Shown: positions 28,819 through 57,804, numbered from the stretch's first letter. The stretch: 64,000 nt of DNA from a bacterium (Candidatus Blackallbacteria) CG13_big_fil_rev_8_21_14_2_50_49_14 (GCA_002783405.1 PFGG01000035.1:113615-177614); one strand, 5' to 3'. Made by a program: numbers and translations. The notes: a model not told the origin generated them from the sequence alone.

Positions 28819-31800
28819 ATGCACTTACCATCTTCATTTAAAGCCGTTCTTTTATTTACCCTGATAGGACTTTTTAGATTTATTGTTCCTTTACCCAGCC
28901 AAGCTACTCAACCCGAATTAAGTTTTCAGAAATGGGCTTATCCTGAAGCCATGGAAGTAAGCCCAGATGGACGGTTTCTTCTCAGTATCGGCAATGGCTC
29001 TCTTCAAGTTTGGGATGCCCGTACAAGCAAACAGTTGTATCAATTAAATGATGTAGTTGCCTATTGTAACCCGCCACTTTGGATCGCTCCAGATTCAAGT
29101 AGCTTTGCATCTAATTGCAGTAACGATATCTTGAGCTCAGCACAGAATCTGAGAGTCTGGAAAATGAGCAGTGGACAGAAAATAGAATCCACAGCAGATC
29201 TTCAGATCGCTCTGAATACCCCCTTTGACATCAGCCCGGACGGCCAATATCTAGCAATACTCCAAAAAGTTAAAGAGAAAAATAACTTTCGTATCGCAAT
29301 CATTGATCGAAAAAACAATGAAATTAAACAGGTAATAGATAATCTCGCTGTATTACCTGAAATCATCCGTTTTATAAATCAGGGCCGTTTTCTTGTCTTC
29401 AGCATGGGAATTCCCGAAAAAGAGAAAGTTCCCTTTGGCAACTCAGGTAAGGTTGAAAAAGATCCCTATTTGATGATTTGGGATCTTCAAAATAAAAAAC
29501 CGGCCAAAACCTTGCAAAACAAAGGCTGGACAAGTCAGGCCAGTACGCCTGCAATTACTCAACTAAACCCTTTAATTGATCAAGCGGGAAAAATAATGGT
29601 CATCTTTCCTGGAAATACCTTTTCTGGAATTGAAAATCAAAACACCCCTGAAATATGGAGTTTAGAATCTGGAGAGCTTCTCCATACCCTGCCAACCAGA
29701 ACAAGCACACAGAAAATGCAAACCCTCAGCAAAGACGGAAACCTACTAGCCTATGAAGATAAAAACCAACTCCTCCTTTACCATCTTCCTTCTCAGCGTT
29801 ATCTCTTCAAAAAAAGCCTTTCTGAAAAACCAAAACCACTGAGTTTTTCTTACGACAATCGCTATCTATACCTGGCAAATCTTAAACAAGGAATTCAAAT
29901 TCTAGATATAAACGAACAGAAAATAACGCAAAATCTTCAGGGGCATTTTTCTCTCAATCAACGCTCTGAATACAGTCCAGAAGCAGGTATTCTTATCCAA
30001 ATGGGTTTAGATTGGATCCAAGATATTGACAAACCTTATATACAAATCTGGAATATGCGTCAGGGAACACGCAGTTTTGTTGTTACAAACAAAACAAATC
30101 CCAATCCTCCAGATGATTTCAAACTCAGCAAAGATGGTAAAACCTTAGCGGTTCTGAATCGACACAAAATAGCTACTTCTGAAAATGGCTATGAACTCAA
30201 TCTGTATACCCTTCAAAATGGAATTCCTCAAAAATTACGCACCCTTACGTTTCCTTACCTTGCACAAAGTCGCTTCATTAAAGAACAAGGCTTATCAAAA
30301 AAACTTTGGGAATTCAGTTCAAACGGCAAATTCATTTATTTTGCCGAAAATTTATATCCTCCTTCACCCAATCAAAAGGTCATCATCAAACGTTTAGATC
30401 TGCAATCGGAAAAAATTGAAACGCTGATACCCCTTTCAGCTTTGGAAAGTTTTCATATTTCGCCCCAAGAAGATCTTCTGATTGCAGAAGAACAACGCAA
30501 AACCCAATTTTGGTCACTTCAAAACAAAACACTTTTACATGAAAATCAATTCAATGGCCCAACAAATTCTTACCGTTTTATTTCCCACCAAGCCTTCAGT
30601 CCTGATGGAAAATTCTATATCCTCAATTCAATTTCCCATCCGACTGAAATTTGGTCCCTGAAAGATTTAAAAAAAATACAAACCTTAACCCCTGCAATGT
30701 TTTTCACGAGCAAAGAACAAGCACAATTGCCTTTAAATCATATATACAAAAGCCTATTTTCACCCGATGGGAAATATTTAGTGACTTTTTATCCCGCCAA
30801 ACCCGATATGATTACAAATGGCACAACACAACTAGGCATAGCCATTTGGCGAACCTCCGACTGGCATTTAATTGCAAATAAAGAGGTTCCCAGTTTCTGG
30901 GGGCTTCCCCCTGGAATCAGCTTTAATAACGAGAATCAAATCTGGGCCTATACCCCTAGCGAAATTCTGGAATGGAATAGTAAAACCGATGCCATCACCC
31001 GCTTTTACTTGACTGGATCGGCTCAGGGCTGGGTTCTGGCCACAGATCAGGGATACTACCGAGCCTCTCAAAATGGGGTGGATATGTTTGCCTTTCATGT
31101 TGGCGAACACGCTTTTCCCTTTGAACAGTTTGATCTAAATTTCAACCGACCTGATAAAATTCTGGAAGCCTTAAATGCCCCAAAAGACGAGATTCAACTC
31201 CACCATCAGGTTTGGCAAAAACGACTGCGGCGCTTGAATATCCGTGAAGAATGGCTGAAACCCAGTTTTCACCTGCCCGAACTTACTTTACTCACCGAGC
31301 AGATTCCACCAGCAACTTCAGAACCCCGTCTGAAACTCAAGGTGCTGGCCAAAGACTCAGATTTTACTCTGGACAGGCTGATGGTCTACGATAACGATGT
31401 GCCGATTCACGGACGCAAAGGCCTCTCTTTAAACGCCGAAAACCTGCACAGTCTGGAACAAGAAATTGAAATTCCCCTGGTGCCTGGTACCAATAAAATT
31501 CAGGTCTCTGTGCTGAATCGAGCAGGAACAGAATCACTGCGTGAAACAGTCAGTATTCATTTCACGGGCCAAACAGCCTCACCGGTTTTACACCTGATCA
31601 CCGTTGGTGTTTCCGATTACCGCCAGAAAAACTTTAATCTGCGTTATGCAGCCAAAGATGCCCAGGATATTCACAACTATTTCAAAACCAAAACCACTTT
31701 AAAATATGAACTCCGACCGACCCAGTTGCTGAACCGCCAAGTCAGCCGGGAAGCGGTTCTCAAACTGCGAAAGCAACTGGAACAGAGCCGGCCTCAGGAT

Positions 31801-32397
31801 CGTGTAATTCTCTTCTTTGCGGGTCATGGCCTGCTTGATCAGGAAAAAAACTATTATTTCGCCCCCCATGAAATTGACTTCGATCACCCTGAAAAACAGG
31901 GGCTGCGCTTTGAAGAAATCGAAGATCTGCTCGATGGCATTCCCGCCCGCGAAAAGCTGCTCCTGATTGACACTTGCAATGCCGGTGAATTGGATAAGGA
32001 ACTCCAGGCTGAACAGATCAGTTTCACTCAACCCCAGGGACAGGTAAAAGCCCGGGCAATTCGCGGTTTCAAGATCACACAACACCTGGGCATGAATAAA
32101 CTCAATCAACTGCTTGAAGAGAGTTTTCTGGATCTGCGCAGGGATACCGGCGCAACGATCATTACCTCCAGCCAGGGGCTTGAATACGCCCTGGAATCTG
32201 CCCAATGGAAAAACGGTGTCTTTACCTTTGCCTTACTCGATGGCCTGAAAAGCAGAAAAGCCGATCTCAACGCCGATGGCGAGGTCAGAGTATCTGAACT
32301 CAAGAGCTATATTATCCAAAAGGTTCAGGAGCTGACCCGTTCTGCACAAACCCCCAATTTCAGGCGTGTCAATCTCAACAATGACTTTACGTTTTAA
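28819..32397 (+). CDS. Secreted multi-blade beta-propeller (WD40/PD40-like repeats) protein with a C-terminal caspase-like peptidase C14 domain
   Basis: N-terminal signal peptide. About 850 aa of repeats with recurring SPDG(K/Q)(Y/F)L blade motifs. The C-terminus reads HLITVGVSDYR...ILFFAGHGL...LLLIDTCNAGE, a caspase His/Cys dyad in canonical spacing. Confidence 0.8.
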   Translation: MHLPSSFKAVLLFTLIGLFRFIVPLPSQATQPELSFQKWAYPEAMEVSPDGRFLLSIGNGSLQVWDARTSKQLYQLNDVVAYCNPPLWIAPDSSSFASNCSNDILSSAQNLRVWKMSSGQKIESTADLQIALNTPFDISPDGQYLAILQKVKEKNNFRIAIIDRKNNEIKQVIDNLAVLPEIIRFINQGRFLVFSMGIPEKEKVPFGNSGKVEKDPYLMIWDLQNKKPAKTLQNKGWTSQASTPAITQLNPLIDQAGKIMVIFPGNTFSGIENQNTPEIWSLESGELLHTLPTRTSTQKMQTLSKDGNLLAYEDKNQLLLYHLPSQRYLFKKSLSEKPKPLSFSYDNRYLYLANLKQGIQILDINEQKITQNLQGHFSLNQRSEYSPEAGILIQMGLDWIQDIDKPYIQIWNMRQGTRSFVVTNKTNPNPPDDFKLSKDGKTLAVLNRHKIATSENGYELNLYTLQNGIPQKLRTLTFPYLAQSRFIKEQGLSKKLWEFSSNGKFIYFAENLYPPSPNQKVIIKRLDLQSEKIETLIPLSALESFHISPQEDLLIAEEQRKTQFWSLQNKTLLHENQFNGPTNSYRFISHQAFSPDGKFYILNSISHPTEIWSLKDLKKIQTLTPAMFFTSKEQAQLPLNHIYKSLFSPDGKYLVTFYPAKPDMITNGTTQLGIAIWRTSDWHLIANKEVPSFWGLPPGISFNNENQIWAYTPSEILEWNSKTDAITRFYLTGSAQGWVLATDQGYYRASQNGVDMFAFHVGEHAFPFEQFDLNFNRPDKILEALNAPKDEIQLHHQVWQKRLRRLNIREEWLKPSFHLPELTLLTEQIPPATSEPRLKLKVLAKDSDFTLDRLMVYDNDVPIHGRKGLSLNAENLHSLEQEIEIPLVPGTNKIQVSVLNRAGTESLRETVSIHFTGQTASPVLHLITVGVSDYRQKNFNLRYAAKDAQDIHNYFKTKTTLKYELRPTQLLNRQVSREAVLKLRKQLEQSRPQDRVILFFAGHGLLDQEKNYYFAPHEIDFDHPEKQGLRFEEIEDLLDGIPAREKLLLIDTCNAGELDKELQAEQISFTQPQGQVKARAIRGFKITQHLGMNKLNQLLEESFLDLRRDTGATIITSSQGLEYALESAQWKNGVFTFALLDGLKSRKADLNADGEVRVSELKSYIIQKVQELTRSAQTPNFRRVNLNNDFTF

Positions 32398-46169: not shown

Positions 46170-46934
46170 ATGAATCCCACACTGCTGCTCAGTCTCTTCC
46201 TGCTGGCAGGAGGGCTGAGTTTCTTTTACCAAAGGCTTTTCGAAGCCGTCACCGTCTATGAATATGAGGCCGGATTTCTCTACCGTCGCGGCTTGCTCAC
46301 CACAGAACTGGCCCCTGGCCGTTACCGACTGCGCAAAGGCATTAGCGAAATTCGCAAGCTGGATCGACGCCAACAAAACCTCAGCATTCCAGGGCAAGAA
46401 ATTCTGACCCAAGATTTAATTCAGCTTAAAATCAGCCTGGTGATCAGCTACCTGATTCAAGACCCACGTAAGGTACTACAGGAAATTGAAAACCTGCGAA
46501 ACAATCTCTACCTTCATCTGCAGATTCTGCTGCGCAGCGTGGTTCAAGCCGAAAAACTCGAAACCCTACTCGAAAATCCCAGCCCTTGGATCACCCATTT
46601 GCAAGAACAGGCCCGTAAAGAACTCGCGGCCTGGGGAGTCGAGCTTTGCAGCCTTTCGCTCAAAGACCTGATGTTGCCTGGAGATCTGAAGCGGGCCTAT
46701 GCCCAGGTTTTCAAAGTACAAAAAGAAGCCCAGGCCCAGCTTGAAAAGGCACGGGGCGAACAGGCGGCTTTGCGCAGTTTGGCCAATGCCGCGCGCATGC
46801 TTGAAAAGAATCCAGAACTGCTCAATCTGCGCCTGATTCACACCCTCGAAAACAGCCAAAACTCACCCACGCTCGTTTTTCAGGTCGGTTCAGGCTTTCT
46901 TCGGCCCTACGAACCCCCTGCAGAGAAGGGCTAG
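46170..46934 (+). CDS. SPFH/band-7 (stomatin-prohibitin-HflK/C) domain membrane protein
   Basis: N-terminal transmembrane segment, then an SPFH core and a coiled-coil tail (KEAQAQLEKARGEQAA). Confidence 0.8.
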   Translation: MNPTLLLSLFLLAGGLSFFYQRLFEAVTVYEYEAGFLYRRGLLTTELAPGRYRLRKGISEIRKLDRRQQNLSIPGQEILTQDLIQLKISLVISYLIQDPRKVLQEIENLRNNLYLHLQILLRSVVQAEKLETLLENPSPWITHLQEQARKELAAWGVELCSLSLKDLMLPGDLKRAYAQVFKVQKEAQAQLEKARGEQAALRSLANAARMLEKNPELLNLRLIHTLENSQNSPTLVFQVGSGFLRPYEPPAEKG

Positions 46935-47042
46935 CTGCCCGCCACGCAACACAAAAGGGGTGTGGTACAATTTTTTCAGGTGGAAGGGGTTGGCTGAACG
47001 CTGATCTCATTCCCCGATTAAAACTCAGGACAGGCATAACAC

Positions 47043-47666
47043 GTGTTTGGTGACAAACTGAAAGAATTATTTCAGCGCTTCTGGCCCGTTTCCCCGCATG
47101 AACCCGTAGAACCGCACCGCTTAGGGCAAATTTTACTGCGCATGTCAGCCCTGACTGAAGAAGAACTTCAACGCGCCTTGCTGATTAAAGAGCAGCAATC
47201 CCATAAACTGCTGGGGCAAATCCTGATCTCAGAAATGATCTGCAGCCAGGAGCAGATTGCCCGTGCGATTGAACAACAACGTGAAGAAACGCGTTTGGGC
47301 CAGGTTTTACAGCGCAGTGGCATTGTCAGCCAGGAACAACTGGCAGAGGCGCTCGCTGAGCAGAAACGCAGCGGCCGTCTGCTCGGCTTTATTTTGGTGG
47401 AACGTGGGTTGTGCAGCCCTGAACAACTGAAAGAAGCCCTGCGCCAGCAACGCCATGACAACCGTTTGGGCGCGATTTTACTGCGTGAGCGAAAAATTAC
47501 CGAAAAGCAATTGGAAAAAGCCCTGAGCCTGCAAGAAGCCTCTCAGGTACTGCTCGGGGAAATTTTAATTCAGTTGGGTTATATCAGCTCCGATGAGCTG
47601 GAACAGGTGCTTCAACGCCAGGAAGCCATTCTCTTCAAATTGCCCACCCCCTCCCCTCTGGACTGA
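47043..47666 (+). CDS. Standalone protein made of six tandem 24-aa MshEN / T2SSE-N-type motifs (predicted c-di-GMP-binding modules)
   Basis: Repeats RLGQILLRMSALTEEELQRALLIK, LLGQILISEMICSQEQIARAIEQQ, RLGQVLQRSGIVSQEQLAEALAEQ, LLGFILVERGLCSPEQLKEALRQQ, RLGAILLRERKITEKQLEKALSLQ and LLGEILIQLGYISSDELEQVLQRQ. They are separated by 4-6 aa spacers. GTG start. Confidence 0.6.
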   Translation: MFGDKLKELFQRFWPVSPHEPVEPHRLGQILLRMSALTEEELQRALLIKEQQSHKLLGQILISEMICSQEQIARAIEQQREETRLGQVLQRSGIVSQEQLAEALAEQKRSGRLLGFILVERGLCSPEQLKEALRQQRHDNRLGAILLRERKITEKQLEKALSLQEASQVLLGEILIQLGYISSDELEQVLQRQEAILFKLPTPSPLD

Positions 47667-47693: not shown

Positions 47694-47770
47694 GGGCACT
47701 TAGCTCAGTTGGTAGAGCGCTGCCTTCACACGGCAGAGGTTTCGCTGGTTCGAGTCCAGTAGTGCCCACC
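47694..47770 (+). tRNA. tRNA-Val (anticodon CAC)
   Basis: Cloverleaf: acceptor GGGCACT/AGTGCCC, D-arm GCTCAGTTGGTAGAGC, anticodon stem CTGCC/GGCAG with loop TTCACAC, T-arm GCTGGTTCGAGTCCAGT, discriminator A. Confidence 0.85.
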
Positions 47771-47788
47771 TTTTATTTTTTGGGCGCC

Positions 47789-48559
47789 ATGATCAAAAAC
47801 AAACTGTTTTTTTCCAGCTTATTCATCTTCAGTCTGCTTCTGAACGGCTGTGCAAACAAGGTGCGTGATATCGCGAACTTTAATAAACGCGTGGTGTTTC
47901 AGTTTTTTGTGCAGGGCAAATTGGCCTTAAACAATGAAAATGTGACCTACTATATCCTCATCAATGCCCCTTCAGGTAAGAAAGACGTGCCCCTCAACCC
48001 CTCAACCAACGGGCCCCGCGTCAACGCTCCCTCGCTCAATGACGGCCCTCAATTTCTCGCCGGTCGCCTGCCCTTTATCGGACAACTGCCCGGAGATATC
48101 GCATCAGAATGGACTGATTTCTATTATTTGCAGGGCACAGCAGATGGGCAGGGCACCATGGGCCGGGGCCGTTTTAACAATGCCACCAAAGCACCTGAAA
48201 TTATCCAGCGCAACTACCCGATCAACAATCTCTGGAGCAAAAAAACAGACTCCAGCTTTGAAGTTCAGATTCTGGTCAACGACCTCACCAGTGGCACCGA
48301 CACGCCAGGCAATCTCGTTTTTAATCTGGCCACCAGCGACAGCATCGACACCGGCCAGGGCTATGTCTACGACTACTGGCGTTCAAATATACCCTTCTCT
48401 GTTCAGACCAAAACCATCAACAGCCAGATTCAGGACCAAGATCCCAATGGCCAAATCATCATGCGCCAGATTCCAGGCAAACCCTTGCCTCAGCTCCCAA
48501 TTGGCGTCAATCAAGCCGATGTGAATATCGTCAGCTATAATTACCGGATCATTCAGTAA
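47789..48559 (+). CDS. Hypothetical lipoprotein (lipobox LLLNGC)
   Basis: Signal peptide with lipobox. Gly/Asn/Thr-rich mature part. The stop overlaps the ruvB start (TAATG). Confidence 0.55.
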
Positions 48560-49623: not shown

Positions 49624-50048
49624 AGCCTTTGCGTAAGAGCTTCAAGCGCTAAAAAATAGCCTTGAAGCCCCAAACCGCTGATTTGTCCCAAAGCCACAGG
49701 CGCAATCCAGGAATGGTGGCGATAGCTCTCTCGCTGATAAATATTGCTGAGATGCACTTCGATCACGCTTAAGCGGGCCGCGCGAATCGCATCGGCCAAG
49801 GCCAGGCTGGTATGGGTATAAGCTCCGGGATTAAAAATAACTCCCTGCGCCCAATCACGGGCATCCTGCAAAAGGTCGATCAAAACGCCCTCATGGTTGC
49901 TTTGCTTGCAAACCACTTCCAGACCCAATTCAAGCCCTCGATTGCGCAGACTTTCTTCAAGTTCTGGCAAAGTCGTGGCACCATAAATTTCAGGCTCGCG
50001 TTCACCCAGCAAATTGAGATTCGGACCATTCAAAACCAAAATTTTCAC
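49599..50048 (-). CDS. aroQ: Type II 3-dehydroquinate dehydratase
   Basis: N-terminus [23 protein letters not shown] and the motif HLSNI. Length is 149 aa. Confidence 0.9.
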
Positions 50049-51883
50049 AATAGGCTTCCCAGAATTTTTTGTGTGTATTGTGCCTCAGTTTCAGTCAGCA
50101 TTTCCTGATAATTTTCACAGGCACTGGCGATCAAGCGACGCGCCCTTTGGCGATCATGGCCCGCATGCCAGAGCAGCGAATCCTTGGCTTCTTCAGGCTC
50201 CTTGTCTGCCACATAGCGCAAAAGCAAAGCTATCGTACGGTTTAAATCCCCAATTTGAATATATTTCAACATGGTCGCCAATTTACGTTTGCTGATCCCC
50301 AAGGGAGCCGGAAAATGATTGGCCGCATGAAAGACAAACTCCATATAATCATTCACAGCTTCGTTTCGGCCAGCAGAGTCGACCTCCTGCAGAACCGTTA
50401 CCAATTTGTATTTTTTTTCTTCACCCACCCATTTAACTGCCGTCTGAGACTCCAAACGCGCTGAATAATCAGCCATCAGATTGCCTTCCAGACGGTTGCC
50501 TCGGTAGTCAAAAATCTTATCGCGGAAGGCATACATGCCACAGGCACGCAGAATACTCATTTCAAGTGAGGAAAAAGAAACCTGAACCCCCTGTCGGGGG
50601 ACTTCACCGCTGACAAAACCCACAACGAAACGTTCCCCTGTCCATTCTACGTAATTGCGAATCGGTTCAATCAGCACCGGCGGTAAGATCGGAGAGCCAG
50701 CTTCATCCTTTTCAAAGAGATTGACATGGATGGAGAGAATTTTTTCAAAGGCCGCTGTGGCATTCTGCAAAGTCGCATAACAGTCTGAAAGTGGTTCCGG
50801 ACAATGTTTGCTATGCACGTCCAAGAGAATGCGAGAGGTGCTTTCAGGAATTTTAAACGGTGATTTACGGGCCCCCGCCACTGCATAATTGCCTGTATTG
50901 GCAATATTGTTTTTAATCAGGCGAATGGTTTCTTCATCAAAGATCAAATCATCGCGATCACGTACACTGCCAATATCCTGGGTGCCCGCCTTGATCAGTT
51001 TGCCTGTAATTTCTTTGAGTTTTTTACTTTGAATATCTATCTCAAGACTGTTTTCGCGCACCTGATCCATAACCCGCACCACGTGTTCAGCGTAAACTTC
51101 AAGATCTTGCCCCAATCGCCTATAGCTTGGATCACGCATAATCTGAGATATTTCATCGCGTTCTTCAAAGGGAATTTCACGCATTGCGATCACATGACTG
51201 TAATGCTTGGCCTTGTTCAAAAGTTCATCAATTTGCGCAATCTGACTGGCAGAATATTTAAACTCGGCAACCAAGTTCTCCAACTTACGAAAAAGCTCTT
51301 TGTTCTGCCCCACCATCGCATAATAGGTATTGTTTAAAATCGTGGTCTGTTCCCGTGACATGGCAATCTGGGTGTCCAAGCTGCGGGTGGCTCTGAATTT
51401 CGCCAAACTTTTTTTGTCCAGACCTTCGGGTTCTAAAACACCCAGCGCAATTGCATTAAACTGGTCTTCACAACGGTAAATGGTGTGGCTCCAGGGGGGC
51501 AGGGTATCGCTTTTGAAATCAAGAATAGCAGCACGCAAACTGCGATAAAGTTCGGGGTCCAGTAATTGCAGGCCGAATTGTCTACCCTGTTCATCTTCAA
51601 AGGTAATCAAATCAGCAATCGCGCCCGTATTCAAAAAAACCCGCTGGGAGGGATTCAAGTGGTTGAGATTGTGTTCAACCAGATAATTGACAAGCGAGGT
51701 ATAGGCATAACGAATCGAGTCAATTTTTTCAGCATAGCTAAGATGTGCATTCAAGCCTACGCTTTGTGCCAGTTCATCACTGAGAACCGCCAAGGCATCG
51801 ATCACGACCGAGGAAATATCCTCGGGAACCCCAGCCAGGGTTTCATTTAAATAATGGTTGATTTCAAGTATTTCTTCTGACAT
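50045..51883 (-). CDS. Large cytoplasmic hypothetical protein (about 610 aa), no recognisable family
   Basis: Continuous ORF with coding-like composition, ATGA-coupled to aroQ. The start is taken at MSEEILEIN. The track extends it to 51979. Confidence 0.5.
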   Translation of the reverse strand: MSEEILEINHYLNETLAGVPEDISSVVIDALAVLSDELAQSVGLNAHLSYAEKIDSIRYAYTSLVNYLVEHNLNHLNPSQRVFLNTGAIADLITFEDEQGRQFGLQLLDPELYRSLRAAILDFKSDTLPPWSHTIYRCEDQFNAIALGVLEPEGLDKKSLAKFRATRSLDTQIAMSREQTTILNNTYYAMVGQNKELFRKLENLVAEFKYSASQIAQIDELLNKAKHYSHVIAMREIPFEERDEISQIMRDPSYRRLGQDLEVYAEHVVRVMDQVRENSLEIDIQSKKLKEITGKLIKAGTQDIGSVRDRDDLIFDEETIRLIKNNIANTGNYAVAGARKSPFKIPESTSRILLDVHSKHCPEPLSDCYATLQNATAAFEKILSIHVNLFEKDEAGSPILPPVLIEPIRNYVEWTGERFVVGFVSGEVPRQGVQVSFSSLEMSILRACGMYAFRDKIFDYRGNRLEGNLMADYSARLESQTAVKWVGEEKKYKLVTVLQEVDSAGRNEAVNDYMEFVFHAANHFPAPLGISKRKLATMLKYIQIGDLNRTIALLLRYVADKEPEEAKDSLLWHAGHDRQRARRLIASACENYQEMLTETEAQYTQKILGSLL

Positions 51884-51996
51884 AAGACCGACTCTAAAAA
51901 TATGCAAACAATTATAGCACCCCCCTCTGAAAACACTTCCGATCGGATTGATTTTCAGACAGAAAAACGGCAGAATCAAATCAGGGGGCGCTTCAA

Positions 51997-52440
51997 ATGT
52001 TTTTAAAATCCTTGCTTTTGTCTGTTCTTCTCTTGACAGGCCTGACCTCGTCTGCCTGGGCCACTCCCCCTGTAAAGGCTACCGAAGATTTGTTTTTGCC
52101 AAATCTTCCCTTGCGCACCCTGCAGGCAGGCTCCAGACAGCCGGTTTATATTCAGATCAGCCCGCAAAATCACGCCCAGGTTTTAAAGCATTACCTGGCC
52201 CTCAGCCAAACCCCCGACTGGCATCTCGATTTCCCCTCAGAAACAGAAGCTCAAATCTGGATTGAAACCTTAAAAAAAACAGGAAAAACGCCCGTCTTTA
52301 TCTTGAGTTTATCCCATTTAAAATCAAAACTTAATGCACACTTAACCATAGGAGCCCTGCCAGAAACAAGGGAACTCAGGGGGCAGACTATAATTACCAT
52401 ATATACAACGCCTTATCGTTTTGGGCGTTCAGGGAGGTAG
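51997..52440 (+). CDS. Small secreted hypothetical protein
   Basis: Signal peptide MFLKSLLLSVLLLTGLTSSAWA. It lies 6 nt upstream of the cpaB-like gene. Confidence 0.4.
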   Translation: MFLKSLLLSVLLLTGLTSSAWATPPVKATEDLFLPNLPLRTLQAGSRQPVYIQISPQNHAQVLKHYLALSQTPDWHLDFPSETEAQIWIETLKKTGKTPVFILSLSHLKSKLNAHLTIGALPETRELRGQTIITIYTTPYRFGRSGR

Positions 52441-52446
52441 AGCGAC

Positions 52447-53766
52447 GTGTCATCAATCGATCATCTGCGCAATAAATTGCGCTCAAATCATCAGGATACT
52501 CAGGAACTAACGCCTGAAACCGGGGCCCATGAGGCCCCCAAAAGTTTTCGCCGCCCATCCCCTGTATTTACTGACGAACTGCCAGGCACTGCAGATTTAG
52601 ATGCTTCCGTGTTTCAAGAACCCGCCTCTCCCTCCACAAACGCAGCTCCGGTCAGCGAAACCCAGCCCAAAAAAGCCAATCCTCTGCTCGAAAAACTGAA
52701 ACAACTTGAAGTCAACCGCAAAATGCTGATCATCGCGCTCGGTGTGGCGGGTTTAGCTACTCTTCTGTCCATGAGTTATATCAAAGGCATTGCAGAACCT
52801 CTGAGAGGGCAATCCAAATTGATCAAGGTCGTGACCCTGGTCAAAGATGTTCCGGCCCGCACCCCCCTCAAAGAAGACATGGTGCAAATCAAAGAAATTC
52901 CTGCCGCCTATGTACCTGAAGGAGCGACGCGCGTAGAGCCAGGCAAAACGCCTGTTGTTTTGGGAATGCTCACCGTGACCGCTCTGTATAAGGGTGAAAT
53001 GCTGATGAAAGAACGCATGTCAGACCCCAATGCCGCTACAGGTCTGGCGACACAAATTCCCGAAGGGCACCGGGCGATTACCGTACGCACCGACAATGCC
53101 TATTTAATGAAGCCCGGCGATTATGTTGACGTCATTGCCGCCATCAAAGATCTGAATCCCGTGCGCCGTGGAAAAATCATCTCGATTCCCGTACTCCAAC
53201 GCGCCAAGATTCTGGCGGTGGGCAATCAATTTACAAGCGAAGCCGGTAATAGCGGCAACAGCAACAGCATGCCGCGTGAAATCACGGTGGCTGTTCCCGA
53301 TGAGCGAGTCAATCTGATGAGTATTCTCGAGCAAAGCAATGGCAAGTTCAATGTGATTCAGCGCGCAGCGGGTGATCAACATATTCAGACCGAGCTGTAT
53401 ACAATTCAGGAAATTGAAGATGCGCTTCAGGGCAAATTTGAATCGACGCCAACCGCCGATACCACCACCCCAACCAAAGAAGTAAAGCCAGCCGCTAAAA
53501 CAACCAAAGAAGAAGATCCGACGGAAGAAGATATTTCCAAACTGGTCGATCTCTCTGGAGGAGCACCCGCAGCCCCTGCGGCGCCGGCTTACCGCGCCCC
53601 AGCCTACCGTGCGCCCGTTTACAGAGCTCCTGTCCGCCAGGCTCCCCGCCGTCCCGCTGCGGCCCCAGCCCAACGGCCCGCAGCAGCACCGGCACGTGCC
53701 CCCGTCCGTCCCTACCGTGCACCCACTGTAATTCAGGGGGGCGTTCAAACCCAGGGTGGAGAATAA
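52447..53766 (+). CDS. CpaB/RcpC-like (SAF-domain) Flp-pilus assembly protein with a C-terminal Pro/Ala-rich APAYR repeat tail
   Basis: N-terminal transmembrane segment. SAF/CpaB core (LIKVVTLVKDVPARTPL..., GDYVDVIAA, AKILAV). Tail APAYRAPAYRAPVYRAPVRQAP.... Confidence 0.6.
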   Translation: MSSIDHLRNKLRSNHQDTQELTPETGAHEAPKSFRRPSPVFTDELPGTADLDASVFQEPASPSTNAAPVSETQPKKANPLLEKLKQLEVNRKMLIIALGVAGLATLLSMSYIKGIAEPLRGQSKLIKVVTLVKDVPARTPLKEDMVQIKEIPAAYVPEGATRVEPGKTPVVLGMLTVTALYKGEMLMKERMSDPNAATGLATQIPEGHRAITVRTDNAYLMKPGDYVDVIAAIKDLNPVRRGKIISIPVLQRAKILAVGNQFTSEAGNSGNSNSMPREITVAVPDERVNLMSILEQSNGKFNVIQRAAGDQHIQTELYTIQEIEDALQGKFESTPTADTTTPTKEVKPAAKTTKEEDPTEEDISKLVDLSGGAPAAPAAPAYRAPAYRAPVYRAPVRQAPRRPAAAPAQRPAAAPARAPVRPYRAPTVIQGGVQTQGGE

Positions 53767-54046: not shown

Positions 54047-54105
54047 AAATGAAAACTGTCTGTTTTGGGACTGAAAATTCGCCATTGATCAAAAAGGAAA
54101 CCTTC

Positions 54106-57100
54106 ATGAGCAAACGAGCTGGAAAATCTGGTGCTGTATTATTATTGTCTGGAATCGTCGGATTAATGACCAGTTGTGGACCGGCCCCGGCCCCCACCGT
54201 GAATGTCAAACCCATCCCTACTACGGTTCCACCGAGTATTGCCCAGACGCCTTTACCTGGCTCCAGCCTGTTGCCCATTCCCAGTCTTCCAGGTCAGACC
54301 CCCACTCCGGGTTCTTCGGGTACCCCAGGAACGCCCATTGCCACTCCCACCCCCATTCCAGGCCCAGGCCAATTGGCGATCAGTTCATCGACCTTGCCCA
54401 CCGCAGCCTTAAATTTCACCTATAACGCCGCGTTAACAGCCGTAGGCGGCAGCGGTTCCTACCGTTGGAACCTGGCCTCAGGAACCTTGCCCAATGGCCT
54501 AATCCTTGATCAGGCAACCGGTCAAATTTTTGGAAAACCCACTCAAACAGGTACCTTCAGCTTCGAAGTTCAGGCAATTGACACCGCAGCCAACGCCGCA
54601 CGCCGCAGTATGTTTATCCTGGTTTCAGACACCAATAGCGGTGTCAATTCTGTCGGCGTACTGACCACCAGTCTGGTCAGCGGCACGGTCGATCGGCGCT
54701 ATTCACAAACCTTGAATGTGGGCGGCGGTGTTGCCCCCTATTCCTGGAGTATCAGCAGCGGCGCTCTGCCTGACGGGCTCGAAATCAACCCCACCACTGG
54801 TGAAATCAGCGGAACCCCCAAACTGCAGGGCGAAGAAACCTTTACCATCAAAGTCATCGATGCCCGTGGGCAAGCAGCGACCAAAACCCTGAGTATAACC
54901 ATTAACCGTACCGATTCCAATATCGCCATTCTGACCGATACGCTCCCGATCGGGATCCTCAATAAAGCCTATGTGCGCACAGGTTGTGGCACAGCTTTTT
55001 CAGGTCAACTGGCTGCCACAGGTGGTAACAATACCTATACCTGGCAAGTCAGCAGCGGCACCCTGCCCACCGGCTTAACCCTGGCCAGCAATGGAGCCCT
55101 GACCGGCACCCCCACAGCCACAGGCGCCTCAACCTTCACCGTACAGGTTTCGGATACCGATAACAACCGCACCAGCAAGGTTTTTACCGTCGAAATCCGA
55201 GATATTCTGGTTCACCGCTTCTCTCCCAATGCAGGTGGAGAAGGTTTGCGAATTGTGGTAGAAGGTGAAAACTTTGGCAGCAATGCCGACAATTACAATG
55301 TGGAATTTGGAGGCGTCAATCAGGCCACCATTGCAGCCAAAGACACCACCACAGACCCAAATTGTCATAAATTGACACTCGCCATTCCTGCAGGAGCCAA
55401 AACCGGTATGTTGCTGGTAAAAAATACCACCACAGGCAAAAACGGCTCAAGCACCATTCCTTTTCTTGCCACAGACGTGGTCATTAACGAAGTCTTCACC
55501 AATCCTGACAGCAGCGGCAATCAATTCGTTGAGCTGCTCAACAAAGGCACCAGCTCAGCCAGCATTGCCGGATGGCATCTGCGCTATACCGATAAAAATG
55601 GCACGCTTGCAGACTTCACCATTCCCGCAGAAACACCTCCCTTGGCCCCTGATGCTGTGACTGTCATCAATATCAACAAAGCAGGTGGCAGCTCAGCGAC
55701 CAATCTGTATACAGGCACAGGCCTTGCAGAAATGCGCTTTGACCCCACCAATGCCACGGCAAGCAGTGCACTCACTCAGATTGCCCTCTGTACAGATTCA
55801 GCTTGCACAGTCACCGCAACCGATACCAATTACCGTGATTATCTCCAGTTTGGCCCCAACGCAGCCACCGATGGCGGCGCACTTGAAAACAATGCGGTCA
55901 CCTCAGGTATTTGGACAGATAACGCAACCCTCGATGTCACCACCCTAAAAGGGGTTTTGGATACCGCCAATATCAACAATACCAATGCCCACAACGGTAC
56001 CAATGATGGCACAACAAACCAAGGCCTGTTGCTTTCTGCAGCAGATGCCGCTAAATTTGCAGTCAATGATGTGATTGTCTTTGACAACGCTGCCACAGGG
56101 GGTAAAATCACACGCCAAAAACGTACCGTGCCAGCCAAAAATGGCAATCGCGTGACCCTTGACTCTGCCCTCTTTACCTCTACCATTCAAAGCACCAATA
56201 CAGGCAACGGCACGACAGGCAATGGTATTTTGGTTGACAAAACCACCGACACCTTCAGTTCCATGAGTGTGTCTGATTTCGTCAATGTCTTGGCCGGTGG
56301 CACGATCCGCACTGTAAGTGCACTTCCCGCTGGCCCCAAAATTGAATTGGACAATACCATCAATACCTTTGTCGATGCCAACAATACCAGTGATGGCTTG
56401 CTCGCCAATGGCGGTTTATTGGTTAAGGCCGGTACATCAGCCACCTTCCCAGCATCCTCTGTCGTCACCATTACCGTAGGTCAAGGCACTACCGCATTTA
56501 CGGTAAACCGCAATGTGGTCAGTCTGCCTGATGCCAACCATGTGGTGATTGACCAGGCGCTGGCAACCGCTCCTGTTTCTGCAGCCAATACAGGGGATGG
56601 CACCTTTGGAAACGGCATTGATGTCACCTCAGCCACCAATTTCTTAACGGGTCGCAAGGTCTTTATCAATGGTCAAACACGTGTTGTCAGCATCAACTCA
56701 ACACAATCTACCAATAAGTTTGAGCTCAAAGATACTTTGGGCAATTATCAGCCGATTGCCAGCATGAGCATCGCAACCAATAATACAGGAACAGGTGCTT
56801 CTGGCAGTGAAATTTCTGTAGCTGCCACAACAGGCTTCAGCATTGGCAGCAAAGTGCGCATCAATGGCCAGATACGCACGATTGCAGGCATGATTCCTGG
56901 CCCCAAACTGCAATTGGATCAACCATTGTCAATGGTCATCAGCAATGCCTTGGGAGATGGAAGCACGGGCAATGGCGTCACGGTATCTTCCACCCAAGGT
57001 TTTGCCAGCACCAACAATATCCTGATTGCAGGTCAGACCAAAACGATTACGGTGGTGGGCAGCACCCTCGAGTTCGCCCCGATCAGCTTCACCCCCAATA

Positions 57101-57804
57101 CAGACGTTGACGGAACCAGCTCAGCCCAAATCGTGCTGGATGCCACCGTCGGTGGCATTGCCAAAGTAGGAGACGGCCTGCGTATCCCCGGTAAGAACGT
57201 CGTTCGCAATATTGCAACCAAAGCAGGCAATAATGTCACCTTGAATGCGCCTTTCGTAACCACTACTTCAGGAGCAGCTGTTACCGTGGCCACCAACACA
57301 CTGACTGTGGCAAGCACAACAAACTTTGCTGCGGGTGATAAAATCCGTTTTGCGGGGGGTGGAAATGGCGGTGCGATTGCAACCATTCAAAGCGTAACGC
57401 CAACCTCTATTACCTTCACTGGAAACGTCAACAATATTGCCTTGGGAGAAACCCTTAACCTCGATGTCAATGGCGTAGCACTCAACTATGTCCCCATCTC
57501 GGGAACGATTGTGATGCAAGGCAATGCCAGCAATACAGATTTCGTAGACACTTTGCATCTGGTGCCCACAAGTGGCTCCTTTACATTGGTGCCCTTTGAT
57601 ACAACGGCCTCAACGCCCAGTACGCAAAGCACCAATAACGACGATACCGATGGCGTACTTTCGCGGGTTCCCACCAGTGGAACCATTCTGGTCGCTCCGA
57701 AATCTGGAACCATCAGCAAATACTTCTCAATCAAGTATGACGGTTCAGGCAACGCGACGACCGACTTTACAGCCACTTCGGCCCCCACTGGCGGAACGAA
57801 GTAG
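54106..57804 (+). CDS. Giant surface lipoprotein / adhesin with tandem He_PIG (putative Ig) domains, an IPT/TIG domain, a lamin-tail domain and long Thr/Gly/Asn-rich repeats
   Basis: Lipobox LMTSC. He_PIG repeats (GGSGSYRWNLASGTLPNGL...TGTFSF.V). IPT domain (HRFSPNAGGEGLRIVVEGENFG). Lamin-tail domain (VVINEVFTNPDSSGNQFVELLNKG...AGWHLRY). Ribosome-binding site aaaaggaaa precedes the start. Confidence 0.75.
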   Translation: MSKRAGKSGAVLLLSGIVGLMTSCGPAPAPTVNVKPIPTTVPPSIAQTPLPGSSLLPIPSLPGQTPTPGSSGTPGTPIATPTPIPGPGQLAISSSTLPTAALNFTYNAALTAVGGSGSYRWNLASGTLPNGLILDQATGQIFGKPTQTGTFSFEVQAIDTAANAARRSMFILVSDTNSGVNSVGVLTTSLVSGTVDRRYSQTLNVGGGVAPYSWSISSGALPDGLEINPTTGEISGTPKLQGEETFTIKVIDARGQAATKTLSITINRTDSNIAILTDTLPIGILNKAYVRTGCGTAFSGQLAATGGNNTYTWQVSSGTLPTGLTLASNGALTGTPTATGASTFTVQVSDTDNNRTSKVFTVEIRDILVHRFSPNAGGEGLRIVVEGENFGSNADNYNVEFGGVNQATIAAKDTTTDPNCHKLTLAIPAGAKTGMLLVKNTTTGKNGSSTIPFLATDVVINEVFTNPDSSGNQFVELLNKGTSSASIAGWHLRYTDKNGTLADFTIPAETPPLAPDAVTVININKAGGSSATNLYTGTGLAEMRFDPTNATASSALTQIALCTDSACTVTATDTNYRDYLQFGPNAATDGGALENNAVTSGIWTDNATLDVTTLKGVLDTANINNTNAHNGTNDGTTNQGLLLSAADAAKFAVNDVIVFDNAATGGKITRQKRTVPAKNGNRVTLDSALFTSTIQSTNTGNGTTGNGILVDKTTDTFSSMSVSDFVNVLAGGTIRTVSALPAGPKIELDNTINTFVDANNTSDGLLANGGLLVKAGTSATFPASSVVTITVGQGTTAFTVNRNVVSLPDANHVVIDQALATAPVSAANTGDGTFGNGIDVTSATNFLTGRKVFINGQTRVVSINSTQSTNKFELKDTLGNYQPIASMSIATNNTGTGASGSEISVAATTGFSIGSKVRINGQIRTIAGMIPGPKLQLDQPLSMVISNALGDGSTGNGVTVSSTQGFASTNNILIAGQTKTITVVGSTLEFAPISFTPNTDVDGTSSAQIVLDATVGGIAKVGDGLRIPGKNVVRNIATKAGNNVTLNAPFVTTTSGAAVTVATNTLTVASTTNFAAGDKIRFAGGGNGGAIATIQSVTPTSITFTGNVNNIALGETLNLDVNGVALNYVPISGTIVMQGNASNTDFVDTLHLVPTSGSFTLVPFDTTASTPSTQSTNNDDTDGVLSRVPTSGTILVAPKSGTISKYFSIKYDGSGNATTDFTATSAPTGGTK

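Follow-up and report, generated by a model that had tools for sequence, protein, structure and literature searches.

We examined the gene at 47043..47666, on the plus strand of a 64,000-nucleotide stretch of DNA from Candidatus Blackallbacteria CG13_big_fil_rev_8_21_14_2_50_49_14 (GCA_002783405.1, PFGG01000035.1:113615-177614). We refer to the whole stretch as the window and count all positions from its first letter. As stated in the initial annotation, made from the sequence alone, this open reading frame (ORF) is present, begins with GTG and encodes 207 amino acids, with the stop codon included in its end coordinate. The ORF is a real gene: the identical protein has been called on 11 contigs, including GCA_002781665.1 (PFFQ01000004.1), and the start position is kept as GTG or ATG in 13 further homologues. 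The protein contains three back-to-back modules that we assign to the MshEN_N subdomain, and we call it the (MshEN_N)3 protein. Our preferred interpretation, which we consider probable, is that this small protein is a receptor with several sites for c-di-GMP (cyclic dimeric guanosine monophosphate) and acts as an adaptor for another protein.

Through a contig profile search built on a 5-sequence alignment, homologues at 49-86% identity were found at 15 loci in metagenome-assembled genomes labelled Candidatus Sericytochromatia, Blackallbacteria, or Cyanobacteria bacterium. The ratio of nonsynonymous to synonymous substitution rates (dN/dS) against homologues was 0.07-0.09. In the closest relatives, the (MshEN_N)3 protein is 86% identical, compared with 58-65% for the flanking SPFH and lipoprotein genes and 79-84% for RuvB. 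Because its identity exceeds that of the flanking SPFH and lipoprotein genes by this measure, the sequences place the protein under strong constraint. A 97-amino-acid antisense ORF also lies within the gene (47168-47461, minus strand). We rejected it as a gene, since it is probably an artefact of the codon composition of the repeats, and it is the sense frame that is under purifying selection. The features of the locus are as follows.

46935..47042, plus strand: upstream intergenic region, where orthologues carry -10-like elements and a stretch rich in purines (AGGACAGG) precedes the start codon
47043..47666, plus strand: (MshEN_N)3 gene, an ORF with a conserved start, dN/dS of 0.07-0.09, and the identical protein on 11 contigs
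47043..47117, plus strand: N-terminal tail, residues 1-25 (MFGDKLKELFQRFWPVSPHEPVEPH), 88% conserved, an amphipathic helix at residues 3-14 followed by a Pro-rich linker
47118..47279, plus strand: module 1, residues 26-79, NF053729 score 45.5 bits, motifs at residues 26 and 56
47292..47450, plus strand: module 2, residues 84-136, NF053729 score 69.8 bits, motifs at residues 84 and 113, spacer KRSGR
47463..47621, plus strand: module 3, residues 141-193, NF053729 score 60.6 bits, motifs at residues 141 and 170, spacer EASQV
47622..47663, plus strand: C-terminal tail, residues 194-207, of which 194-202 (EAILFKLPT) is moderately conserved and the rest variable
47694..47770, plus strand: tRNA-Val(CAC), called by ARAGORN, Rfam score 65.3 bits

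Six motifs pair into three MshEN_N modules

The repeat region is composed of six 24-residue motifs starting at residues 26, 56, 84, 113, 141, and 170, and successive motifs are separated by 6, 4, 5, 4, and 5 residues. This confirms the six motifs and 4-6 residue spacers first noticed in the sequence, and the example peptide quoted at that time is exact. The motifs pair into three modules of 53 or 54 residues with within-module spacers of 6, 5, and 5 residues. Odd-numbered motifs begin RLG and even-numbered motifs LLG, and the (R/L)-L-G start is kept in 6/6. Mean pairwise identity between motifs is 40%, with a mean BLOSUM62 score of 43.4 against -17.4 ± 2.9 in the shuffle control (z = 20.8; 0/5000 shuffles as high). 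Motifs 1 to 6 match the 11 consensus positions at 8, 7, 10, 10, 9, and 10 of them, and none of the six units reproduces the strict motif of 2016 at every position. Positions 1, 2, 3, 17, and 21 agree with the consensus or are conservatively substituted in all six; the deviations are the absence of Gly10 in motifs 1, 2, and 5 and a Q24K substitution in motif 1. At the DNA level the repeat copies are merely 60-80% identical, over short stretches only; on this basis the repeats are old, and we ruled out their recent duplication.

We next compared the protein with profile and structure databases. NF053729, a 53-position NCBIfam model of a domain that bears the name 'c-di-GMP_motif, cyclic di-GMP-binding domain-containing protein, MshE-related' (cutoff 38 bits), matched the whole protein in three stretches (148.2 bits; E = 4e-44). 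Each module taken singly spans model positions 1-53 and scores above the cutoff. The best match among Protein Data Bank (PDB) sequences by phmmer was Thermus thermophilus PilF (1.5e-19, three stretches), with further matches to the PilF GSPII-B c-di-GMP domain (3e-7) and Vibrio cholerae MshE (5HTL; 6e-6). Module 2 aligns with PilF GSPII-B, with GSPII-C, and with MshE residues 9-61. Together, the profile score and the PDB matches to MshE and PilF bear out the MshEN-type family that had been proposed for the motifs.

The AlphaFold2 (AF2) model of the protein is all-helical (mean predicted local distance difference test score, pLDDT, of 79.6), with three helix-hairpin pairs, no strands, and continuous helices across both module junctions (residues 69-91 and 126-148). 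When this model was searched against the PDB with Foldseek, the top matches, both c-di-GMP-bound, were PilF GSPII-B (8PDK chain B; root-mean-square deviation, rmsd, 1.1 Å) and MshE (5HTL chain B; 0.8 Å), each over 52 columns at 48-50% identity and a probability of 1.00; the E-value is just 0.4, owing to the shortness of the match. The four-helix-bundle fold match is that of a predicted model rather than an experimental structure. Under the naming scheme used by Wang et al. (2016), the modules are MshEN_N subdomains, which are four-helix bundles, and not full MshEN domains.

Among the Pfam and NCBIfam matches to the 207-amino-acid protein there was no enzymatic or DNA-binding domain and no T2SSE ATPase domain, in agreement with the earlier observation that an ATPase or other output domain is missing. 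The PilB model TIGR02538 matched by its first 53 positions only, at 24 bits against a cutoff of 676, and the NfrB and EpsG NCBIfam models also matched. Two Pfam profiles scored above their cutoffs: PF14332 (DUF4388/PatA_N; 36 bits, cutoff 25), four times but only at profile positions 50-76 of 122, a helical insert with a likeness to one motif, and PF11165 (DUF2949; 28.8 bits, cutoff 24.2), at profile positions 7-53 of 56, which correspond to a single module. We interpret both, from the extent of the alignments, as cross-matches of a shared hairpin and not as a rival family assignment. DUF4388/PatA_N, DUF2949, and FumaraseC_C were rejected as an unrelated helical repeat family, since these profiles are covered by one hairpin or module only. 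Assignment of the repeats to such a family, the outcome that the initial annotation had set against its own proposal, therefore did not occur. As a separate observation, DUF2949 (56 positions, described as cyanobacterial) matches a whole module and positions 50-76 of PatA_N/DUF4388 match one motif, which suggests that these two families contain MshEN-motif-like hairpins without being annotated as such.

Predicted c-di-GMP-binding sites

Published biochemistry allows the modules to be read residue by residue. Isolated VcMshEN_N(1-65) binds c-di-GMP 1:1 with a dissociation constant (Kd) of 0.35 uM, slightly tighter than the full domain (PMC5013675), and the MshEN_N subdomain alone is thus sufficient for binding. 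In PilF's GSPII-B domain the two motifs start with Lys and Leu, an L196R substitution cuts affinity 4-fold, and position 1 of the motif consensus has been widened to R/K/L (PMC11731258). Given the Leu start in GSPII-B and the extended (R/K/L)LG consensus, the LLG starts of motifs 2, 4, and 6 are, as sequences, canonical, and are even what members of high affinity typically show. Binding depends critically on Gly at position 3 and on Gln at position 24 (PMC5013675, PMC11731258). The PilF substitutions Q190E/Q218E affect the critical Gln24, non-binding PilF GSPII-A has H33/R62 there, and the non-binders XpsE and PilF GSPII-A have lost one or both of Gly3 and Gln24.

Across 14 homologues, Gly3 never varies in any of the six motifs, nor does Gln24 in five of them, and the ligand-contact positions (1, 2, 3, 17, 21, and 24) are 95% conserved compared with 78% for the other motif positions. 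We take this pattern as good, though indirect, support for c-di-GMP binding by two sites or more. Modules 2 and 3 follow the consensus closely (key positions 10/11 and 10/11 in module 2, 9/11 and 10/11 in module 3) and carry Gln24 in both motifs, as Q107, Q136, Q164, and Q193. Moreover, module 3 starts with NRLG, the same as PilF GSPII-C, which is a c-di-GMP binder (PMC12002112). Both modules are accordingly predicted from their sequences to bind c-di-GMP. Module 1 is the most divergent (8/11 and 7/11). It lacks the turn Gly, its second motif has Ile at positions 17 and 21, which is tolerated in PilF, and K49 occupies the Gln24 position of its first motif, alongside Q79 in the second. Lys at position 24 is permitted in the relaxed search motif of Wang et al. 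(PMC5013675). Since K49 is invariant in orthologues at a position where Gln is critical, binding by module 1 is doubtful, and we predict this site to be weak or non-binding. Of the three binding domains first proposed, then, modules 2 and 3 fit the consensus and module 1 is doubtful, and all three consist of the MshEN_N half only. Taking all receptor readings together, it is likely that the (MshEN_N)3 protein binds c-di-GMP at all.

Conserved segments outside the repeats

The description of the protein as essentially nothing but six motifs holds in that the six motifs are real, but it passes over conserved non-repeat residues at 1-25 and 194-202. In the 14 homologues the N-terminal tail (M[FL]GDKxKELFQRFWPVSPxEPVEP) is nearly invariant, with a mean conservation of 88%; residues 194-202 are conserved at 72% and residues 203-207 at 44%. 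Residues 3-14 form an amphipathic helix with a hydrophobic moment of 0.70-0.72 (11-residue windows starting at residues 2-4) and a hydrophobic face made up of L6, L9, F10, F13, and W14. AF2 places a helix at residues 3-13 with pLDDT < 50, and segments that fold upon contact with a partner or membrane typically give such a low-confidence helix in a model. The tail had 0 family matches in a profile search. We therefore regard it, on the strength of its sequence, as a candidate element for contact with a partner or membrane.

Upstream of the gene, an alignment of orthologues revealed TATAAT-like boxes in five loci (L006, L008, L010, L014, and L016), and ACTCAGGACAGGCA is conserved upstream of the gene in the closest relatives. 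A simple promoter scan of 46935..47042 in the window itself gave no match. The conserved boxes suggest that the (MshEN_N)3 gene has its own promoter.

Related arrays and known systems

A sister clade also encodes proteins made of MshEN_N only, with four modules of which the third is degenerate (P0006-P0019; 240-248 amino acids), together with a 199-amino-acid variant (P0020). These arrays lie directly upstream of a PS_pyruv_trans (CsaB-like)-WecG-FtsE-FtsX gene series (L021, 6001-10336; L023, 6001-10579; L025, 3976-10080), a possible link to envelope polysaccharide or cell division. No CsaB-WecG-FtsEX genes were found near the window gene. In L025, two paralogous array genes flank a TPR gene.

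More widely, a scan of 1.84 billion representative proteins gave 4160 matches at E <= 1e-3 and 378 at E <= 1e-10, among them similar stand-alone arrays of 187-193 amino acids with six motifs. Larger metagenomic arrays were also seen (including P0122, P0123, P0127, P0132, and P0135). P0122 and P0123, of ~395 amino acids, consist almost wholly of nine to ten motifs, and arrays of ~1160 amino acids combine three four-motif clusters with Hpt, TSP3, and dockerin signatures. Among the closest metagenomic relatives are arrays in which 4-12 motifs are joined to a GT2 glycosyltransferase (such as NfrB), REC, Hpt, or PATAN domain; fused arrays have an output domain in cis, and the window protein has none. 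A structural search of BFVD further matched one module to A0A516LYM6, a phage-encoded protein of 90 amino acids (71 columns, 30% identity, probability 1.0), which may, from this predicted-structure match, be a viral single MshEN_N-like protein.

Among characterized proteins, V. cholerae MshE (5HTL; PMC5013675) shares the 53-residue, two-motif four-helix bundle (rmsd 0.8 Å over 52 columns, 48% identity). In MshE a single module precedes MshEN_C and a T2SS/T4P ATPase, whereas the window protein has three modules and neither of these, and its second motifs start with Leu rather than Arg. The T. thermophilus PilF domains GSPII-A/B/C (6F8L, 8PDK, 9G1W; PMC11731258, PMC12002112) share three consecutive homologous modules in one polypeptide, an LLG motif II as in high-affinity GSPII-B, and the NRLG start of GSPII-C; PilF also shows that affinity can vary between tandem modules, one of which may fail to bind. 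However, PilF modules carry a C-terminal alpha/beta subdomain, lie ~140 residues apart, and are fused to a hexameric ATPase, while the window protein stands alone and its modules abut via 4-residue linkers.

The nearest listed architecture is that of Cyanothece cce_1044 (ACB50395), a cyanobacterial (MshEN_N)2 protein. It appears among the 'MshEN_N only' entries in Supplementary Table 4 of Wang et al. 2016, which also include fusions to REC, CheX, and AAA_31 (PMC5013675). Like the window protein, it has MshEN_N modules only, with no T2SSE_N1 or other domain, and comes from the cyanobacterial lineage, although it has two modules and not three; the likeness is one of listed architecture. It was not among the proteins measured in that study (PMC5013675). 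Finally, stand-alone PilZ adaptors (such as MapZ and PlzA; PMC8316039) resemble the window protein in being small and free of an output domain and offer a functional analogy in that they act by ligand-dependent protein contacts, but they have a beta-barrel fold, usually one binding site, and no homology to it.

Gene neighborhood

The SPFH/Band_7 gene (46170-46934) ends 108 nucleotides upstream of the (MshEN_N)3 gene, and tRNA-Val(CAC) starts 27 nucleotides after its stop codon. Both neighbors are thus present in the window as first described. SPFH adjacency is confined to the 86%-identity group of closest relatives, and tRNA-Val occupies the same place in only part of the clade (in L006, L008, L010, L012, L013, and L020 but not in L011 or L014-L016). 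Homologues down to 71% identity retain the order tRNA-Val, lipoprotein, RuvB, which is probably just local synteny; at 50% identity this order is lost, and those homologues lie in unrelated, differing contexts.

The lipoprotein-like ORF had 0 Pfam, PADLOC, or PHROG matches. It was called at 47762-48559, where the GTG start at 47762 would overlap tRNA-Val, and its likely true start is the ATG at 47789, from which its product opens with a lipoprotein-like signal; the stop of the resulting ORF (47789-48559) overlaps the RuvB start codon at 48559. Elsewhere in the window, 28819-32397 encodes a 1192-amino-acid protein with WD40 beta-propeller repeats and a C-terminal caspase (Peptidase_C14) domain. 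An ORF of 644 amino acids (50045-51979, minus strand; 612 amino acids on database contigs) and one of 147 amino acids (51997-52440, plus strand) had 0 Pfam matches, and both are syntenic across Sericytochromatia at 33-74% identity. They adjoin an RcpC/CpaB-like gene (52447-53766) and a gene for a 1251-amino-acid He_PIG/PKD/LTD surface protein (54049-57804).

Interpretation and alternatives

The observations above can be accommodated by a small cytoplasmic protein in which three MshEN_N four-helix bundles stand back to back, each built from two 24-residue motifs of the form (R/K/L)LGxxhhxxxhhxxxxLxxxLxxQ. A single monomeric c-di-GMP would be bound per module, as it is in MshE of V. cholerae and in GSPII-B and GSPII-C of T. 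thermophilus PilF. The first residue of the motif (Arg or Leu) and the Leu triangle would enclose each guanine, to which the motif Gly and the residue after it would donate hydrogen bonds through their backbone NH groups, and the terminal Gln of the motif would hold the ribose-phosphate. Since the protein has no catalytic or DNA-binding domain, its output would most likely be ligand-dependent binding of another protein, by analogy with stand-alone PilZ receptors, and contact could be made through the amphipathic tail at the N terminus, through the surface of the array when loaded with ligand, or through both. In GSPII-B, alpha1 unwinds its first turn upon binding (PMC11731258). If the predicted continuous junction helices likewise unwind, the geometry of the array would change, and because no more than four conserved residues (REET and RHDN) link one module to the next, occupancy would be expected to break these helices and reshape the array.

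Against this interpretation stand several observations that also carry its principal structural rival, a degenerate helical scaffold that does not bind and whose bundles are kept for protein-protein contacts, like PilF GSPII-A or the XpsE N-terminal domains. The motif alone is no guarantee of binding: PilF GSPII-A remained non-binding even with its consensus restored, and binding returned only after removal of the C-terminal subdomain and of an N-cap-stabilised extra alpha1 turn. Sites 2 and 3 could be similarly blocked by the junction helices at 69-91 and 126-148 of the model. Motifs 1, 2, and 5 lack the turn Gly at position 10, which varies among orthologues, though it is, judging from these sequences, evidently dispensable for the fold of this family. 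Module 1 carries the invariant Lys49, and DUF4388/PatA_N and DUF2949 profiles also match the hairpins. No GGDEF, EAL, HD-GYP, or PilZ gene and no c-di-GMP riboswitch was found in the 64-kb window, which is too small a sample for the absence of turnover genes to be informative. Binding of c-di-GMP by cyanobacterial MshEN domains has been stated as not yet tested (PMC12448109), the searchable literature yielded no functional study of any stand-alone MshEN_N array, and no conserved neighbor across the homologue loci points to a partner. The Pfam MshEN profile PF05157 gave 0 matches on the protein even at E <= 10, so that the T2SSE_N/MshEN profile search suggested at the outset was negative; the MshE-related NF053729 was positive. 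In the relative P0144, PF05157 matches after the motifs (residues 187-256, profile positions 17-87 of 90), in a region that is the MshEN_C/T2SSE_N1 subdomain. This half is absent from the window protein, which accounts for the lack of a match, and the negative result is hence not evidence against the motif assignment. A non-binding scaffold nevertheless seems to us decidedly unlikely. Known non-binders lack Gly3 and/or Gln24, which are invariant here in 6/6 and 5/6 motifs; contact positions are more conserved than core positions; the isolated MshE N subdomain binds better than the full domain; and the block in GSPII-A needed a C-terminal subdomain and an ideal N-cap box, both of which are absent here.

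If the protein does bind c-di-GMP, it could instead serve as a sponge or buffer, as the initial annotation suggested, with no partner and three sites that sequester the nucleotide and set a threshold or delay for other receptors. The three predicted sites and the absence of an output domain fit this proposal, in PilF GSPII-B a Leu at position 1 of the second motif goes with nanomolar affinity, the gene appears to carry a promoter of its own, and abundant high-affinity binders are thought to lower effective free c-di-GMP (PMC11731258). A sponge, however, needs its binding residues only, yet here the N-terminal tail is 88% and the non-contact motif positions 78% conserved, and the whole protein is conserved to the level of RuvB. 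Searches of PADLOC and PHROGs gave 0 matches, and BFVD no full-length viral structural match. A phage or defence cyclic-oligonucleotide sponge was rejected on these negative PADLOC and PHROGs results, the single-module extent of the one 90-amino-acid BFVD match, and the housekeeping neighbors (RuvB, AroQ, TruA). Because the conserved non-repeat segments and the very slow evolution of the whole protein would be needless for a pure sponge, the sequence data favor a partner-binding adaptor, and we regard sequestration as the sole function as unlikely, though a serious contender. A receptor for another cyclic dinucleotide, for example 3'3'-cyclic GMP-AMP (3'3'-cGAMP) or cyclic di-AMP (c-di-AMP), would be a considerable surprise. 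VcMshEN_N binds cGAMP detectably, and the divergent module 1 could have shifted specificity, but MshEN_N binds cGAMP about 1000-fold more weakly (Kd 3.3e-4 M), c-di-AMP binding was undetectable, and all six motifs retain the contacts specific to guanine (from the Gly backbone NH to O6/N7).

A more elaborate form of the receptor hypothesis, to which we give only an outside chance, is that the contiguous array acts as a cooperative multi-site c-di-GMP switch. Graded sites, weak in module 1 and strong in modules 2 and 3, would be filled sequentially and the junction helices broken, and the array would pass between a rod and a compact state, thereby exposing or hiding the invariant N-terminal amphipathic peptide.

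Implications for stand-alone MshEN_N arrays

The stand-alone architecture is not new in type, since (MshEN_N)2 proteins were listed by Wang et al. in 2016 and larger arrays are common in metagenomes; the window protein is a further member of a catalogued, uncharacterised architecture. With the module, the binding mode, and the stand-alone class already described, its value is incremental. It does, however, come from the Sericytochromatia, non-photosynthetic relatives of the cyanobacteria, and from a field in which c-di-GMP receptors are under-identified compared with the cyclases and phosphodiesterases, which are many. Only PilZ, MshEN, and ComFB are c-di-GMP receptor protein families of broad distribution (PMC12448109). 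A conserved, single-copy, domain-minimal protein with three MshEN_N modules offers a convenient model for affinity grading and cooperativity between tandem modules, and also for the targets of stand-alone arrays and possible c-di-GMP buffering.

Should the cooperative switch prove correct, the array would provide an ultrasensitive threshold response, or recruitment to a membrane or partner. Stand-alone MshEN_N arrays, which have 3 to 6+ modules and are widespread in metagenomes, would then constitute a distinct class of c-di-GMP effectors and might be tied, like those of the sister clade, to FtsEX functions and to polysaccharide of the cell envelope.

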